Shown here: one piece after another, positions 19,701-64,000 of the stretch
How the letters are laid out: each line of letters begins with the position of its first letter
Position numbering within the stretch: position 1 is the first letter of the stretch
Source: a bacterium
GTDB taxonomy: Bacteria > SAR324 > JACQKK01
Reading direction: 5' to 3'
Assembly: GCA_965240465.1 (NCBI GenBank)
Contig: OZ251219.1
Location: 288,001 to 352,000, forward strand
DNA: 64,000 nt
Position numbers: made by a program

Positions 19701-22700
19701 GACCCTGACGCTGAATAAAAAACATGGGAACATCCAGGGCGTACTGGACATAATCTGCATAGCCAAAGTCGGCATGCAGAGCTCGCTTAATAAACCCACC
19801 GCGATGAGAATCTACATGCTCCCAGATCCAAGCTCTCTCGGATAAACGACCGCACGGTTTTCCGTCTACAAAGGGAGAAGCCGCAAACAGGGCGGTTACT
19901 AGGGGCGTCAATAGTAACATTAGACGCAATTTGCGTCCCATATCGGACTCATCGGAATAGTCCAAGTTAACTTGTACCGTGCAGGTATGCTGCATCATGT
20001 CCAGAGCCATAGATCCTCTGGTGGATAGATATTTCCGCATTATCGCATAACGCTCTTTGGGTACCCAAGGAGAATCAGCCTCGTGCACAAAGGGAATACG
20101 CCCGATTGTGAGCCATCCCAAGCCGAGTTCAGCTGAAATGCCTTGAATTTCTTTTAGATGCTCTCCCATCTCATGACATGTATGATAGGTATCTGGCTGT
20201 ACCAAGCCGCTTAGCTCAAATTGTCCGCCTGGTTCCAGCGTGATAAAGGATCCATCTTTTCTTTTAAGGGCAATAGGATGCTTACCCTCATAAACCGCCT
20301 GCCCGATTGATTTATCTGCTAGTTTCTCCAGCAAGATATTAATTCCAGCTTGATTTTTTGTTCCATGGTAGGGCAAGCGAGAATTATTGGATAAGAACCC
20401 AAATTTCTCATGCTCTGTACCTACTCCCCAACTTGAGCGAGGTTTCTCGCCGCGTAGAAATATGGAGCATAAGTCCGATTCCTTACGAATAGGAGGAGAA
20501 TCTCCCTTGAAATTGGTGGTGGACATCAGTACGTTCCGTTAAAATGGCTGGCCTACGAATACTTGAACCATAAACGGCTCTTACATATCATACGCGAACC
20601 AAAAGCCTAATTTGTCCCTTACTTTATCATTTCACTAGTGGTGCATTTATGCCAACTCATAATATCGGCATCAGTACAATTTACTTTTAAGCATGGTAGA
20701 AGGTAAATGATGTATCTAGCATAATCCTGTCTTTCCCCATTTGATAGAATACTGCTTTTGTGAATCGCCTTTTGCTTCAATTTGCTGCTTGGCTGGAGCT
20801 GAGCGGTTATTCCCCCAATAGTCTGCAAAGCTATCGCTTGGATGTAAAGCGTTTTATCGCTTGGATGGCAAACACCAAAAAAATCAATCCGCCAGACTTG
20901 AAACTACTCACCCATGCCGATCTGCATAACTATCTTATGACGCTGTCTCAAATGCTAAAACCGCGTTCAGTGAATCGTCATTTATCTTCTTTGCGATTGT
21001 TTTTTCACTTTCTCCAGCAGCACGGACTAATCAGCGATGATCCTTCCCTCCGCCTGCAGATACCTGCCCTACCTCCCATGCCTGCCCCACCATTGCCAGA
21101 AGAACAACTCAACCTACTCCTGACCGCCTCTAACCCCGATACCCCCCAAGGCTTGCGCGATGCCGTTATGCTGGAACTGTTGTATCACTATGGCTTGAAA
21201 CTAAACGAATTGACCTCCATCAACACCGCCGATCTGCTACTTAAGACCAGTGCCCTACAAATTAGAGGCCGTAGAGCTCGTACGCTAGTGCTTTCCGAAC
21301 AAAGCTGTAAGCTGCTAACACTCTACCTTAGAACCGCACACCCTAAAATGATCAAAAATCGCCCCGCACCCTGGCTATTTCCTTCTCGCAGTGGCAAAAG
21401 ATTAGACCGCATCGGAGTTTGGAGGCTCATCAATCGCCGAGCCGCCAGAGTGGGACTTACTCAACATTTCACGCCCCGTAGCTTAAGACATGCACTCGCC
21501 ATCCAACTATTGAAAAATGGACGAGAACTAAAATCCGTCAAAAAATTACTCGGCTACCAAAGAAATGAGGGCATGGCAATATACGCCCATATCACTCCCA
21601 AAAATTCCCCCTCTGCCGACCGATAACCTATCTCACGCTACTCAAATACGTCGCTATAATGCCAGTGTCAAGTACTCAAACCCTAAAAAATATGCTCCCT
21701 CCGCATTGGCAAAAACCTCTGCCTTCTAAACGACCATTTGTTACCCTCAAAGTCGCCATTACCCTAGACGGTAAACTTGCTGCTGCTAATCATCACTCCC
21801 AATGGATCACCAGCCCCCCTGCCCGTGAACATGCTCACCAACTGCGAGCTGAGCATCAAGCCATCTTGGTAGGACACAAAACAGTGCTCCATGATGACCC
21901 CCTACTAACCGTCCGACTCAAACCACCGCCTCGCTCACAGCCCATCCGCATTATCTTAGATTCCAAAGCCCAACTAGCTCAACAATCCCCGCGATGCCTA
22001 GCTAATCCCATACCCTCTGAATCGCCTATCATGGCAGTAGGTAACCACGCTCCCCAAAAAAACATCCGCTCACTACTACAAAAAGGAATCCGAGTCTGGC
22101 AAGACACTCAACACATCCAGCCTTCCATACCTCATCTGCTTAAATGGCTAAAACAACTATCCATTAACTCCCTGCTCGTAGAAGGAGGCTCCCAAACCTA
22201 CACTAGCCTAATCCAAACCCAAACAGCCGATGCCCTCGCCCTTTACCTCGCTCCACGCCTGATGGGACAATCACAAGCCCTAAACTGGTGCCAAGACCTC
22301 GGACTGATAGGACTTACAGACCTACCACAACTGAAAATACTCACCTCACAACCATTAGGCAAAGATCTCTTCCTGCTCGCCCGCTTTCTGTGAACCACCA
22401 CCACCCAAAAACTTGACACGGAGTTAAATCGTGGTACCATATCGGGGCTGGAGTGCTTGATCGGGCTGAGCAATACTTTTTAGCCAGCATCTTGCCACGT
22501 TAAATTCACCTCGGTTGAACTGGAGAACTTTTGACGAAAAAATTATCACTGCTTTCGGCTTGTATTTTCGCTCTATTTTTAGCTAGCTGCGGGGGGAGCA
22601 GCGGAGGCGGCGGGGGGCCTGCTGATGCCGATTCCGATGGCGTCCCCGACAGCAAGGATCTGTGCAAAAATAGCCTTGATGAAAACTTCATCAGCAGTAG

Positions 22701-61700: not shown

Positions 61701-64000
61701 TTTCTGCCAGTGAAGATACCTTTAACTATGTAGGTGGCTTGGTAAGTCATAATAGTGGCACCATCAGTTCTAGCCATGCCACTGGCTCTGCCACTGTCTC
61801 TGCTGCCGGTGGTAAACTTAGTCTAGTGGGTGGCTTGGTAAGTGCAAATTTTGGCATCATCAGTTCTAGCTCTGCCACTGGCTCTGCCACTGGCGGTGGT
61901 GTTGGTAATAACTGGGTAGGTGGCTTGGTAGGTTATAATTCATCCACCATCCAAGATAGTTATGCCACTGGCTTTGCCACTGGCGGTGCTAATAGTGACT
62001 TTGTCGGTGGCTTGGTAGGTGATAATTTTAGTGGCACCATCAGTTCTAGCCATGCCACTGGCAAGGCTGATGGCGGTGGTGGTGGTGACTTTGTCGGTGG
62101 CTTGGTAGGTTATCATGAGTTTCACACCACCATCATCAGAAATAGCTATGCCACTGGCAAGGCTGATGGCGGTGCTGGTGATGACATTGTCGGTGGCTTG
62201 GTAGGTTCGAATGAGAATACCATCAAGAATAGCTATGCCACTGGCAAGGCTGATGGCGGTGCTGGTGATGACATTGTCGGTGGCTTAGTGGGATTTATTG
62301 CTAATGCTTCCACAACCATCAGTAACAGTTACGCCTTAGGAACTGTTGATGGAGGTGCTGACGGCGATGAAGTGGGTCGCTTGCTTGGCAAAAAAGGGAC
62401 TGGTAGTATTGGGACAATTACAATTACCAGCAACTATTATGATAGTGGTAGTAGCTTAACTGGCGAAAGTCCCCTATCCCTTCCAGATACCGAAGCTCTG
62501 GGCAGGACCAAAGCCCGGCTGAAAGCCAACAACAATGTTGCCCCCGATAGTGATACTGCTTGCAGTAGTGCTGGGGGAACTTGGAGTAGTGCTGCATGCA
62601 CCTATGGGCATCTGGACTTTAGTACCGACAACTGGGATTTCACTGCTGACAAATACCCCAGCCTGAGGTCTTATAAGACTACCACTGATACCAGCACCCC
62701 CCCCGTGGTCACCCAAATCGCAGGCGATCTGCTCTGTGGGCAATTACCCGAAGCTGACTTCGTTCAGTGTCCCCCCTCCACTACGCCTTAGGCTAGCCCC
62801 CCTCCCCCGACTGCTTGAAGAAGTCAGCCGAGCATTTGGGAGTGAGTCTCACTCCCTTTTTGTTTTTGGGGACTGCGTGTTGTTATTTTAATCATCAGAG
62901 GAGAAGGATTTTTAGTTTGCCCCTTGTGTGAAGCCCTTTTATTGCACTATCCTTGGGTTTGGGTCAGAGGAGAGGTGACTGAGTGGCCGAAAGTGGCAGA
63001 TTGCTAATCTGTTGTGTGGGGAAACTTGCACCGCGGGTTCGAATCCCGCCCTCTCCGTTATTTGTATGGAAGTTAGCTGATGTTTGAGTGGAGGTTAGTA
63101 TTGGATCAGTTGGGTGGTAGTTTAACAAGGGGTAGTTTTGTGCGAGATTTTTTTTGGTATGGAGGAGTGAATGGGTTACAGGCGTTAATTCCATTGTGTT
63201 TATTACCTTTTATTACTCGGACGGTATCTAGCGAGCAATATGGTTTATATGGTTTTTTTATTGCGGTGGTGTTGTTATTTCATCCTTTTGTGCGTTTGGG
63301 GATGGACAGTTCGGTATTGTACAAGACGTTCACTTCTTCGAGCGAGCGTTTAAGTGAGTATTGGGGAACGGCATTAACGCTATGTTTTTTAGTGGGAGGG
63401 GTATTAGCGATGGTGGCTTGGTTTTTTCCTATTTTGTCTAGTTGGGGTATTCGGGGTTTATCTGAGCAAGGGGTTGGCATGGGGGTGTTACAGAGGTGGT
63501 TGCCGTTGGTGATAATGATTGCCTTATTTGAGAATGTGTTGGCGATTTTGCGTGCTTTTTCTATAGCGATAAGCAAGCGGATATATTATGCGGTATTGAC
63601 TTTGGGTCAGCGGTTGCTGTGGGCTTTATTGGCGATTTGGCTAGTGGTTTTGGGTGGTGAGCAGGCGGGTGGATTATTATTATCGCAGGTATATTCATTA
63701 TTGTTGCTGGTTTTATTGGGATTAGTTTGGTTATGGAGGATGGGGTATTTGAAGTTAGCGATCAAGTCAGAGGATATTTTACATAGTTTTAGGTATGGCT
63801 TACCGTTGGTATTGCAAGTATTTTCTTTCAACATGATTCAATATTCGGACCGTTTTTTCTTAAAAGTGATTAGTGGTTTGGATAGTTTGGGAGTGTATGT
63901 AGCGGGTACGCAAGTATCTTTAGCTTTTTTTGTTTTTACGGCTTCTTTGCAATCTATTTGGCATCCGTGGGTTTTTGCTCGTCTTGCTAGCGATAGTTAT

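Follow-up and report, generated by a model that had tools for sequence, protein, structure and literature searches.

What kind of protein family comes to fill a tenth of a bacterial proteome, where does it come from and what might it do for the cell? These questions are raised by a 64,000-nucleotide stretch of contig OZ251219.1 (the window), in which positions 22531-62791 hold 16 paralogous open reading frames (ORFs) of 401-1081 aa, all on the plus strand. The first-pass annotation of this DNA had assigned them to a family of 57 genes (47,713 aa, 10.2% of the proteome) lying in tandem arrays, and a tandem lipoprotein family of this very large size is indeed confirmed. A phmmer search of the whole genome recovers 58 ORF fragments adding up to 48,144 aa and 9.0% of bases, and single-linkage clustering reproduces the claimed size with 58 members that make up 10.0% of ORF residues. 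The arrays lie where they had been placed, with six counted here (17, 6, 6, 16, 5 and 2 ORFs), each of them unidirectional, together with five singletons; next to array 4 lies another tandem family, of S8 subtilases with P-domains.

Architecture of the lipoproteins

The members are bacterial lipoproteins. Behind the lipobox signal the mature part consists of one or more modular units, in which Asp-rich DxDxDG/Cys repeats come first, the GLUG beta-helix second and a two-cysteine end loop (LLCxQ..DFVQC) last. Within each unit 0 to ~35 Asp-rich, Cys-paired DxDxDG repeats are followed by the right-handed helix, with an N-cap, 3-14 coils and an end cap, and by the two-cysteine loop, with both coil number and repeat number varying widely between members. 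By Tandem Repeats Finder the corresponding intragenic repeats are 123-177 bp long in the Asp-rich part and 84-96 bp in the GLUG part. Signal, cap and end loop are all kept in most of the 58 fragments, whose frames are open over 500-2600 aa, and DFV[QK]C is found in 45 stop-to-stop ORFs genome-wide. A lipobox had been claimed for 47 of 57 members; a regular expression finds one in 49 of 58 family ORFs, variant lipoboxes occur in four further ORFs (LANCGGG, LNACGGG, LLVNCEGD and NTSCTGQ), and of the 16 window ORFs 14 have a lipobox signal. Thirteen window ORFs are intact members, all with the lipobox signal (M[KRQ]KLSLLS..LFLA[SG]CGG) and the DFVQC end; the other three are one that is frameshifted, one without a signal peptide and one with a mis-set start (the ORF listed from 60575). 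Lgt and Lnt are encoded in the genome, as is LspA (94.5 bits, cut-off 73.95), and because BamD, LpxC and a Kdo transferase are also present the cell is diderm.

The median Asp content is 12.4%, and in the DxDxDGxxDxxD repeats paired cysteines recur every 41-59 residues, with two invariant Cys per unit. Such motifs with paired cysteines are reminiscent of thrombospondin type 3 repeats (TSP_3), yet the family repeats fall below the Pfam model (PF02412) at every threshold tried, with no match in eight whole proteins at E<=0.01 or in two repeat regions at E<=10. A sequence search of the PDB with one protein and with a repeat profile returned nothing, and AF2 gave no usable model for the repeat region (pLDDT 42.8). 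TSP_3 does match at the equivalent position in the relatives P0074 (52.7 bits, cut-off 25), P0109 and P0033, and hhalign gives a weak alignment of the family repeats with the P0074 site (E 0.0047, probability 7%). Going by the motif, the Asp-rich repeats may bind calcium.

Pfam Glug (PF07581) was found in all eight members tested, with E-values of 3.8e-14 to 5.6e-32 and 52.5-108.4 bits (cut-off 20.5), no other Pfam family matching these eight at E<=0.01, and the genome as a whole has at least 150 six-frame Glug matches. The 520-aa member at 49919-51481 gave an AF2 model with pLDDT 90.0 and pTM 0.88, for which the best structural match by VIA-align (Z 29.3, rmsd 3.3, 293 residues, 24% identity) is residues 1015-1328 of the G. 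haemolysans IgA1 protease. BACOVA_03286 (PDB 3n6z) follows at Z 28.8, whereas generic beta-helices reach ~20 or less, and the top Foldseek matches are the same IgA1 protease and 3n6z entries. The likeness to the GLUG domains of the M26 IgA1 proteases (7uvk, 6xja) and 3n6z is one of fold (Z 27.5-29.3, ~285-293 residues, 20-26% identity) and spans N-cap to end cap (model residues 43-506). Judged from the model, the predicted beta-helix head is a homologue of the GLUG beta-helix that M26 IgA1 proteases carry as a non-catalytic part, and the family and these domains probably share a common ancestor. The family is not, however, an M26 IgA1-specific metalloendopeptidase, an identity rejected because HExxH occurs in none of 57 family ORFs and Peptidase_M26 has no match in eight members searched with Pfam. 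In contrast to the M26 proteases the family is without a protease domain and is anchored by lipid rather than by LPXTG or a transmembrane segment; it adds Asp-rich repeats before the helix and a two-cysteine closing loop to the GLUG domain, and is present as ~55 paralogues in this genome.

The conserved C-terminal module that had been described as a separate entity does not hold up as such, being mostly an ordinary GLUG end cap that is shared with proteins of other organisms. In our 112-position profile of the C-terminal part of the family, positions ~2-100 (W..NW.F...YP.LKSY) correspond to the normal end of a GLUG beta-helix unit, a segment that is repeated up to 13 times in giant proteins from other organisms and that aligns with the solved IgA1-protease beta-helices. 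What is special to the family is just the last ~15 residues. The 54 matches reported among 1.84 billion representative proteins become, with this profile, 486 at E<=0.001, 213 at E<=1e-10 and 48 at E<=1e-30. Five ORFs contain 2-4 units and have the module in an internal position, with the SDTDGDNDG of the next unit directly after it, and therefore a C-terminal sorting signal of the T9SS CTD or PEP-CTERM type is ruled out; behind the last Cys there are 1-8 residues and no hydrophobic segment.

Gene arrangement and intergenic cassettes

The layout of the window is given in Table 1. Spacers between genes 1-4 are short, and the promoter matches there are only 9/12 and overlap start codons. The frameshift of the pseudogene does not lie at a homopolymer, and the member without a signal peptide is, from its sequence, probably inactive or not exported.

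Table 1. Features of the lipoprotein array, in window positions.
Feature	Position	Strand	Remarks
Promoter-like site	22413..22440	+	TTGACA-16-TACCAT, TG before second hexamer; 10/12 match; 5' of first gene; likely serves genes 1-4
Member 1, 924 aa	22531..25305	+	Lipobox, 16 DxDxDG motifs, 5 GLUG coils, DFVQC end; Glug E 9.8e-17
Member 2, 696 aa	25391..27481	+	G9 run 25475-25483 codes Gly run right behind lipobox Cys
Member 3	27525..30599	+	Likely start GTG 27567
Member 4	30631..33840	+	Likely start GTG 30685; 147-bp Asp-rich unit in 8.6 tandem copies
3' cassette	33841..33998	+	C7 run, then intrinsic-terminator hairpins 33887-33910 and 33976-33998
Member 5	34110..36566	+	Likely start ATG 34191; promoter-like site 34073-34102
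Pseudogene	36610..38551	+	Frameshift near 37665 and later stops; C-terminal loop remnant 38124-38548
Member without signal peptide	39196..41175	+	Glug E 5.6e-32; degenerate signal with stop directly upstream
3' cassette	41176..41247	+	C9 run 41182-41190; terminator 41224-41247
Member, 1072 aa	41444..44689	+	Likely start ATG 41471; promoter-like site 41347-41375; terminator 44738-44761
Member, 606 aa	45001..46821	+	Best promoter-like site, TTGACA-17-CATAAT, at 44861-44889
Member, 956 aa	46931..49801	+	14 GLUG coils
Member, 520 aa	49919..51481	+	Shortest complete member; used for structure model
Member, 648 aa	51591..53537	+	
Member, 627 aa	53664..55547	+	
Member, 712 aa	55672..57810	+	
3' cassette	57811..57891	+	C14 run 57817-57830; terminator 57869-57891; then promoter-like site 57991-58019
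Member, 571 aa	58131..59846	+	
3' cassette	59847..59916	+	C10 run 59853-59862; terminator 59893-59916
Family-associated conserved non-coding element	59956..60630	+	Own promoter-like site
Member	60818..62791	+	Listed ORF from 60575; signal peptide starts near 60818; G8 (60878-60885) and G11 (60893-60903) just behind lipobox Cys; C8 runs at 60628 and 60656, 5' of the member
3' cassette	62792..62856	+	Interrupted C run; short-loop hairpin 62838-62856
tRNA	62969-63057		After last window cassette

Many genes of the family share 3' cassettes, for which 14 poly-C tracts and 17 terminator words had been claimed. A run of seven or more C follows 15 stop codons, and the hairpin GGGAGTGAG..CTCACTCCC has 16 sites in the genome, all of them 45-136 nt past a family stop codon, with a 17th of shorter loop at window positions 62838-62856. 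No copy of the cassette turned up in other metagenome contigs. It is the intergenic cassettes that hold the region's strongest promoter-like and terminator-like matches; overall, the number of promoter-like matches in the region is not above that of shuffles (41 vs 31.1 +/- 6.0 and 28 vs 26.0 +/- 4.9). A structured non-coding element of ~650 nt lies next to the arrays.

Distribution and origin

Absence of the module from the sister species and other relatives had been reported and is borne out, as the C-terminal profile gives 62 matches in this genome, none in 20 relatives and none in the other 87 genomes of the class, with which the whole phylum is covered. In the complete sister genome (G001), of which the first 800 kb had been covered before, none of 57 members has a match by blastp or tblastn, and GLUG proteins with other C-termini, which had been left as a possibility in relatives, do not appear in the 20 relatives when Pfam Glug is used. 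The array at genome positions 1341925-1357161 is a clean insertion between two genes that are adjacent to each other in the sister genome. Among catalogued genomes the family is thus species-specific as had been stated, but the term fails for metagenomes, where proteins with the DFVQC loop are found that this genome does not encode. These ENA metagenome proteins have the same lipobox and LLCGQ..DFVQC end and are 46-96% identical to the paralogues, three of them lying on one 138-kb contig, and the NCBI-derived proteins P0096 and P0242 have the same loop at 34% identity.

Giant GLUG proteins of uncultured bacteria, including those of two chromosomes labelled 'MAG: Gammaproteobacteria bacterium' (OZ244039.1 and OZ242372.1), are like the family in their order of Asp-rich repeats, DDDGDGLIEI.. 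cap, GLUG coils and W.FG...YPA[LI] end, and one of them (L033) also has a lipobox. OZ244039.1 has many copies per genome as here, with 11 loci among the matches listed. The giant proteins differ in that their units are joined into 1500-7800 aa, whereas in this genome most units are separate genes, and in that they end in YPA[IL][RN]C without the LLCxQ..DFVQC loop, the C-terminal profile having no match in OZ244039.1 or OZ242372.1. Relatives with the full architecture belong to unrelated taxa, and the pattern suggests that this lineage acquired the unit by horizontal transfer.

Diversification and possible roles

On balance we think it somewhat more likely than not that these lipoproteins were acquired horizontally and form a diversifying coat or a set of adhesins. 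The acquired unit would have been multiplied by tandem duplication, change of repeat number and unit fusion into the six one-directional arrays, with most genes or short operons having a promoter-like site of their own and a family-specific terminator cassette. The acylated proteins would sit on the extracytoplasmic face of a membrane, most likely at the cell surface, where the acidic repeats, putatively binding calcium, would form a stalk of adjustable length and the beta-helix a head for binding or shielding, with exposed residues that change fast. All members together would provide a heterogeneous coat or adhesin repertoire, probably a fast-diversifying set that catalogued relatives are without. 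Slippage at G/C homopolymers may turn some members on or off, which is the least supported step.

In the six closest window pairs (dS 0.08-0.23) dN/dS is 0.79-1.14 and frames remain open, although relaxed constraint could likewise give values near 1, and dN/dS is inflated by misaligned repeats; the median over 91 pairs is 0.49, older pairs being at ~0.5. At least two pseudogenes lie in the window. G/C runs of 10 or more number 46 in this genome where 3.3 are expected, compared with 1 where 4.4 are expected in the sister genome, and 38 of the 138 runs of 8 or more fall within the arrays, on 9.1% of the genome. This excess, with long runs enriched threefold in the arrays, would fit a phase-variable repertoire of the contingency-locus type, in which slippage at G/C runs or recombination among copies would alter the set of lipoproteins shown by each cell, as in Mycoplasma, Neisseria and Campylobacter, a reading that we regard as unlikely. 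In three genes G8-G11 runs stand right behind the lipobox Cys, in three other members C9 runs lie in the tail-coding part, three G9-G10 runs are found 83-174 nt upstream of the member at genome positions 875207-876685, and one pair of paralogues has mosaic identity (98% at the 5' end, 71% in the cap, 85% at the 3' end). Yet 15 runs lie 6-24 nt past stop codons, outside frames and promoters, and most poly-C runs are 3' of the stop codon, where a change in length leaves the frame untouched. None of the members proved to be switched off or out of frame at a homopolymer, public assembled contigs from a single sample had no indels at runs, both MutS and MutL are intact, and discordant pairs are limited to 1 of 378, the paralogues being well diverged. 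Loci switched by inversion, of the Vpma/Vsa type, are rejected, because all genes of an array have the same direction, there are several promoter-like sites and the sister genome, which is without the family, has a syntenic orthologue of the XerD-like tyrosine recombinase gene that adjoins one cluster. The lipoprotein family, the excess of long G/C homopolymers and the ~650-nt element all occur only in this genome among 88 of the phylum. It is a rather remote idea that the three form one acquired system, with a large RNA element, that controls which lipoproteins are displayed; if true, this would be a new kind of programmable surface-variation apparatus in an uncultured, genome-reduced bacterium, acting by homopolymer slippage and a dedicated large RNA.

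Most lipoproteins of diderm bacteria face the periplasm, and it is conceivable, if doubtful, that these members do too, or are structural, for instance as an acidic calcium-buffering or envelope-stiffening layer. Their high Asp content would suit such a role, members have Gly at +2 after the lipobox Cys, which by the E. coli rule predicts just release from the inner membrane, and no dedicated surface-lipoprotein exporter gene was found adjoining the arrays. However, dN/dS near 1 in recent copies and extreme variation in copy number and length are typical of outward-facing proteins, and homologous units elsewhere sit in giant secreted or T9SS-tagged proteins. That the beta-helices are enzymes for nutrient harvest, acting on polysaccharides (as lyase, hydrolase or epimerase) or in proteolysis with the neighbouring subtilases of array 4, draws on the alignment of generic beta-helix enzymes at Z 17-20; we think it improbable, as the closest structural matches (Z 28-29) are to non-catalytic GLUG domains, the invariant columns of 43 family members and relatives are nearly all structural Gly or aromatic residues, HExxH is absent from 57 ORFs and the eight members searched with Pfam have no catalytic family. 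That the repeats are a decaying or selfish expansion of little function today would account for the pseudogenes and fragments (window 36610-38551 and 39196-41175, genome 908544-909536) and for dN/dS ~1 in the youngest pairs, but is very improbable given the mostly intact frames, the lower ratio of the older pairs and a genome of 1.6 Mb (2.3-5.2 Mb in relatives), which is unlikely to carry 9% of its DNA as ballast.

Large lipoprotein families occur in other bacteria as well. The paralogous lipoprotein families of Borrelia also combine a small genome with a very large lipoprotein share and are thought to be host-facing, but they are plasmid-borne, have a documented role in the host and differ in fold. 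The variable surface lipoprotein families of mycoplasmas, for example Vpma of M. agalactiae (PMC2268961), are similar in their reduced genome, in clustered lipoprotein paralogues that have conserved signal peptides and internal repeats, and in the tyrosine recombinase gene that adjoins one cluster. They differ in that there is no relation of sequence or fold, the arrays here are one-directional, the host is diderm, the recombinase gene is conserved in the family-less sister and switching is only a candidate, and the family described here takes up far more of its genome.

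The GLUG lipoprotein family and its arrays

The genome under study (G000), a single contig of 1,599,138 bp with a G+C of 45.4%, carries a lineage-restricted expansion of a unit that is widespread but uncharacterised. The unit joins an acidic stalk to a GLUG beta-helix and is encoded in this genome as separate lipoproteins. The large lipoprotein family reported in the first-pass annotation is confirmed, with its layout of lipobox, GLUG and DFVQC, and the earlier counts are reproduced, as the ORF, phmmer, clustering and array counts agree. DFV[QK]C is present in 45 stop-to-stop ORFs, a phmmer search with the shortest member as query returns 58 ORF fragments (48,144 aa, 9.0% of bases) and clustering of the ORFs places 58 members in a single family that accounts for 10.0% of ORF residues, the next largest family having 19 members. 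The genes lie in six arrays of 17, 6, 6, 16, 5 and 2 ORFs, each with one orientation throughout, together with five singletons. In five ORFs, up to 2645 aa long (see table), a single frame contains 2-4 complete units; adjacent genes appear to have fused here, and the products recall the giant multi-unit proteins known from other organisms.

The window array (22531-62791, plus strand) consists of 16 ORFs of 401-1081 aa, with the opposite strand nearly empty. Thirteen of its genes are intact, one is frameshifted at a break that is not at a homopolymer, one (39196-41175) has no signal peptide and one has a listed start far 5' of the true signal peptide. The common layout begins with a signal peptide, M[KRQ]KLSLLS..LFLA[SG]C, and a Gly/Ser run, followed by a variable number of Asp-rich units (TDYDSDGC.D..EDTDDDND...D.....DKC), a cap, DVDDDNNGLIEIATAEEL.NIRH.LDG...GC....GC.GYEL, coil repeats of the form VGGLVG.N.GTI.NSYATG...GG.G.D and an end, W..NW.F...YP.LKSY....QI.G.LLC.Q...DFVQC, with 2-8 further residues. 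Tandem Repeats Finder places the intragenic repeats in two classes, of 123-177 bp and 84-96 bp. Glug was the sole Pfam match in all eight window proteins tested, and NCBIfam gave no match to either of the two family proteins tested. Among the members without a regex lipobox, four have in-frame variant lipoboxes, which led to the rejection of a poly-G run splitting signal from body, and two have no signal, the partial ORF 6207-7097 and the signal-less window gene.

Coordinates of multi-unit family ORFs, neighbouring genes and copies of the non-coding element
Feature	Sequence	Position	Remark
ORF of no assigned family	window	433-1323	in low-GC stretch 1-4303
HEAT-repeat/adenine DNA methyltransferase ORF	window	1320-2720	in low-GC stretch 1-4303
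Nudix-domain ORF	window	2948-4303	in low-GC stretch 1-4303
Multi-unit family ORF	C1	691331-699268	
Multi-unit family ORF	C1	699320-704485	
Multi-unit family ORF	C1	704782-708423	
Multi-unit family ORF	C1	710728-713964	
Multi-unit family ORF	C1	898171-902457	
CARDB-domain protein genes (L192)	C1	256160-273253	just 5' of the window
S8 subtilase genes (L186)	C1	911837-924999	adjoining array 4
Tandem short ORFs (L190)	C1	1334597-1338415	5' of array 5
Non-coding element	window	59956-60630	
Non-coding element	genome	876865-877538	minus strand
Non-coding element	genome	716105-716788	
Non-coding element	genome	530696-531361	
Non-coding element	genome	1210763-1211344	
Non-coding element	genome	1572152-1572303	partial

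Anchoring, fold and repeats

The genome encodes Lgt, LspA and Lnt as well as BamD, LpxC and a Kdo transferase, a gene content from which the cell is predicted to be a diderm able to make triacylated lipoproteins. An AlphaFold model of a 520-aa member, built with a 43-sequence alignment (pLDDT 90.0, pTM 0.88), is a right-handed beta-helix from residue ~53 to ~487. The top Foldseek ranks were 3n6z, a Bacteroides 'putative IgA1 protease' structure of the beta-helix only, and then the IgA1 proteases 7uvk and 6xja; VIA-align gave Z of 29.3 to 7uvk, 28.8 to 3n6z and 27.6 to 6xja, with 283-293 residues aligned and 20-24% identity, compared with ~20 or less for pectinases, tailspikes and other beta-helices. 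Because the beta-helices of IgA1 proteases align best and HExxH occurs in 0 of 57 family ORFs, the head of the family is, on the model, the non-catalytic GLUG domain and not a protease.

The structural alignment extends to residue 505-506 of the model, inside what had been described as a conserved two-cysteine C-terminal module with 54 matches among 1.84 billion representative proteins. When a 112-position profile built from 13 window C-termini (A1) was run against the 1.84 billion representatives, the matches instead numbered 486 at E<=0.001, of which 213 also passed E<=1e-10 and 48 passed E<=1e-30. Most of the strong matches are long proteins (1100-7800 aa) in which 3-13 stretches match, each covering profile positions ~2-80 or 2-100, and the matched stretch is the W..W.F...YP.L end cap that closes every GLUG unit. 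In the five multi-unit ORFs the LLC.Q...F[VF]QC loop is internal, and SDTDGDNDG.. or PPTPPVTS.. comes immediately after it, leading into the next unit. As the cap closes every GLUG unit and the loop can be internal, the 'module' is a piece of structure that ends the unit and bears a short Cys-Cys loop, and the same observations rule out a C-terminal sorting or anchoring signal.

The Asp-rich units are 41-59 aa long and invariant at the Asp positions of DxDxDG and DDDND and at two Cys, a pattern that we take to resemble thrombospondin type 3 repeats. Pfam TSP_3 did not match the family repeats, PDB sequence searches returned nothing, whether the query was one repeat region or a profile of 13 repeat units, and an AF2 model of a 184-aa repeat region reached a pLDDT of 42.8. 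Relatives of the same architecture have TSP_3 at the equivalent place, where the repeat profile of the genome aligns weakly. Given these results the repeats are called 'TSP3-like' and calcium binding is putative.

Spacers and cassettes

The spacers of the window array are of two kinds. In the long spacers (~270-300 bp) a poly-C run starts 6-7 nt past the stop and is followed by ..CTGCTTGAAAAAGG.. and then a 9-10-bp G+C-rich hairpin with a T tract, whilst the 3' end has a promoter-like site, TTGACA-17-CATAAT (11/12, near-consensus), and a Shine-Dalgarno sequence. Counted with a strict pattern, the hairpin word has 16 sites in the genome, every one 45-136 nt past a family stop; a looser cassette pattern gives 986 matches, mostly chance. 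A 17th copy of the hairpin, with a one-base loop, lies 3' of the last window gene. The short spacers (85-125 bp) are without a terminator and have weak promoter matches only, thus genes 1-4 of the window are probably one operon, running from the site at 22413 to a double terminator at 33887 and 33976. Promoter-like counts overall show no excess over shuffled sequence; the sole informative features are where the best sites lie and how strong they are.

In metagenome contigs 87 stretches matched the hairpin pattern; among the 80 that were read (L193-L272) the CTGCTTGAA cassette was found in none and FVQC in one, by chance. In three ENA metagenome relatives of family members (P0107, P0032 and P0164) the ends are frame-shifted readings of the same DNA, with that of P0164 running through the poly-C and the cassette (..ASPPPPRLLEKGSRAFFWE); the cause is either natural frameshift variation or faulty assembly.

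Homopolymeric runs and divergence of the copies

Long G/C runs are in excess over a first-order model throughout the genome, with 138 runs of >=8 (47.6 expected), 46 of >=10 (3.3 expected) and 18 of >=12 (0.2 expected), against 49, 1 and 0 in the complete genome of the sister species (G001), which are at or below expectation (4.4 expected for >=10). Loss of mismatch repair as the cause is ruled out, as MutS and MutL score over the cut-offs in both genomes. The arrays, 9.1% of the genome, hold 38 of the 138 runs and the other 100 lie outside them. Within the family the runs occupy four positions: 6-24 nt past 15 stop codons, in the Gly run that adjoins the lipobox Cys in three genes (G8-G11, among them the window runs at 25475, 60878 and 60893), in a Pro tail of three genes (C9) and upstream of two genes, one of which is 875207-876685. 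Slippage could switch expression only at the post-lipobox and upstream runs, and a homopolymer-driven switching system is unlikely, given that no family member is presently out of frame at a run and that MutS and MutL are intact. The stretch occurs in two public sequencing runs, both available as assembled contigs from one sample, and no RNA run was listed for it. These contigs contain repeat-collapsed joints between cassettes and no indel at poly-C or poly-G runs, which is uninformative on variability. HIP1 is not enriched in the genome, with 16 seen and ~24 expected.

The paralogues are not near-identical cassettes. Among the 28 members with all landmarks the median nucleotide identity is 62% in the 5' 150 nt, 73% in the cap and 67% in the 3' 300 nt, and 1 of 378 pairs is clearly mosaic, which rules out cassette recombination from silent copies. 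Measured between the cap and the end, dS is 0.08-0.23 and dN/dS 0.79-1.14 for the six window pairs that are most alike, the median dN/dS over 91 pairs being 0.49. It is possible that values near 1 come from relaxed constraint or from misalignment of repeats. Nevertheless open frames of 400-500 codons are kept, and together with the high dN/dS of the close pairs this points to fast, probably diversifying change at many positions on a conserved Gly/hydrophobic scaffold. The number of coils also varies widely, at 0-28 per ORF fragment and 2-28 in complete members, as does the DxDxDG count, at 0-35.

Distribution and origin

The profile A1 has 62 matches in the genome and none in 20 relatives, nor in any of the 87 further genomes of the class, a class that makes up the entire catalogued phylum (43 genera, 35 genomes >=90% complete). 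Pfam Glug is absent from the 20 relatives, the control being positive in three of 14 well-known genomes. The sister genome (1,724,560 bp, G+C 49.8%) matches 1008 ORFs of the genome over >60% of their length, at a median identity of 63%, and none of the 57 family ORFs by blastp (E<=1e-10) or tblastn (E<=1e-5); its own largest families have 26 members and <=2.6% of ORF residues. The genes that flank the array at 1341925-1357161 are ~220 bp apart in the sister species, and the remaining arrays are at synteny breaks or beside genes that only G000 carries. NCBIfam on 102 ORFs from 10 regions of the genome gave housekeeping names only.

The family had been thought to be confined to this species. Its absence from the 87 catalogued genomes supports this as far as the phylum is concerned, however relatives with the DFVQC end exist among metagenome proteins that the genome does not encode. 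A word-index search scored 8000 candidates, of which 4463 are relatives at E<=0.001. The best non-self matches include metagenome proteins from ENA that share the signal peptide and the LLCGQ..DFVQC end (P0006, P0009, P0012-P0015, P0020, P0024-P0026, P0028 and short fragments). They are 46-96% identical to the best G000 paralogue; none is encoded by the genome, three (P0014, P0026 and P0028) are on one 138-kb contig, and P0009 and P0013 come from 34 kb of contig sequence. P0033, P0049 and P0064 have LLC.Q....QC, and the NCBI-derived P0096 and P0242 have 34% identity only and end in LLCGQLPMVDFVQC and LLCGQGTNFVQC. The whole unit without a DFVQC-type loop is abundant in two complete chromosomes labelled 'MAG: Gammaproteobacteria bacterium', in which A1 finds nothing. 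The simplest history on these comparisons would be acquisition from outside the phylum and then expansion in a clade of which this genome is the sole catalogued member.

These two MAG chromosomes, OZ244039.1 and OZ242372.1 (loci L017, L025, L029, L033 and others), of 2.2-2.3 Mb, have at least 14 loci for multi-unit proteins of Asp repeats and GLUG, a parallel expansion in another small genome.

Possible role of the family

Large, fast-evolving surface-protein repertoires are known chiefly in pathogens, for example mycoplasmas, Borrelia, Neisseria and trypanosomes. An expanded, fast-evolving lipoprotein repertoire in a small genome is a known kind of thing; what is new here is the building block together with its 3' cassette, and also the scale and phylogenetic setting. 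A different block, a lipid-anchored acidic stalk with a GLUG beta-helix, is amplified to a tenth of a 1.6-Mb genome in an uncultured lineage whose catalogued kin are all without the domain, within a phylum of only 88 catalogued species. To our knowledge the GLUG beta-helix has no assigned function outside IgA1 proteases; none of the papers listed in literature searches on GLUG describes such a family, and the protein Atlas holds 'hypothetical/Glug' clusters only. The most likely role, favoured only slightly, would be that of an outward-facing coat or a set of adhesins that has diversified. Should the proteins prove to be exposed at the surface, they offer a natural experiment on how a reduced genome invests in the interface with a host, prey or particle, on what GLUG beta-helices bind, and on how diversity arises from tandem arrays, changes in repeat number and fusion of units. 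The family also provides a clean marker for horizontal acquisition and subsequent expansion.

Neighbouring genes and a non-coding element

A conserved non-coding element of ~650 nt, with its own promoter-like site TTGACA-17-TACACT, is present in five full copies and one partial copy that are 68-95% identical. Four of the six adjoin GLUG lipoprotein genes, two of them directly upstream of one. The element is specific to this genome, as BLAST found no copy in the other 87 genomes of the phylum; two of its conserved blocks had 0 matches in viral_contigs, an Rfam search of 59840-60830 at E<=1 returned only two chance eukaryote or virus matches, and no copy has a reading frame >92 aa. The consensus fold has 193 pairs, 21 with compensatory changes compared with 6.7 +/- 2.0 when shuffled (0 of 500) and 3-7 for slid partners, the proportion of paired cells is 95.1%, compared with 39-46% after sliding, and the MFE z-score is -3.0. 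The support for RNA structure is good and the element is a candidate large structured RNA, although its 20-bp long-range helix could be the terminal inverted repeats of a MITE.

Other gene families lie near the arrays or the window. The five tandem CARDB-domain protein genes (565-1676 aa) belong to a second lipoprotein family of six members, five with a lipobox, and four of the five have no counterpart in the sister species. The eight tandem short ORFs, of 107-149 aa and mostly ~141 aa, are absent from the sister species, and Pfam on four of them gave one weak PD-(D/E)XK match. The S8 subtilases have a proprotein-convertase P-domain and some have CARDB; they are part of an eight-member family absent from the sister species, with four confirmed by Pfam and a fifth paralogue at 922654-924999, and it may be speculated that they are functionally linked to the lipoproteins. 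At the start of the window, positions 1-4303 have a G+C of 30-37% compared with 45% genome-wide and adjoin a tRNA at 215-303, and this stretch is probably a foreign island.
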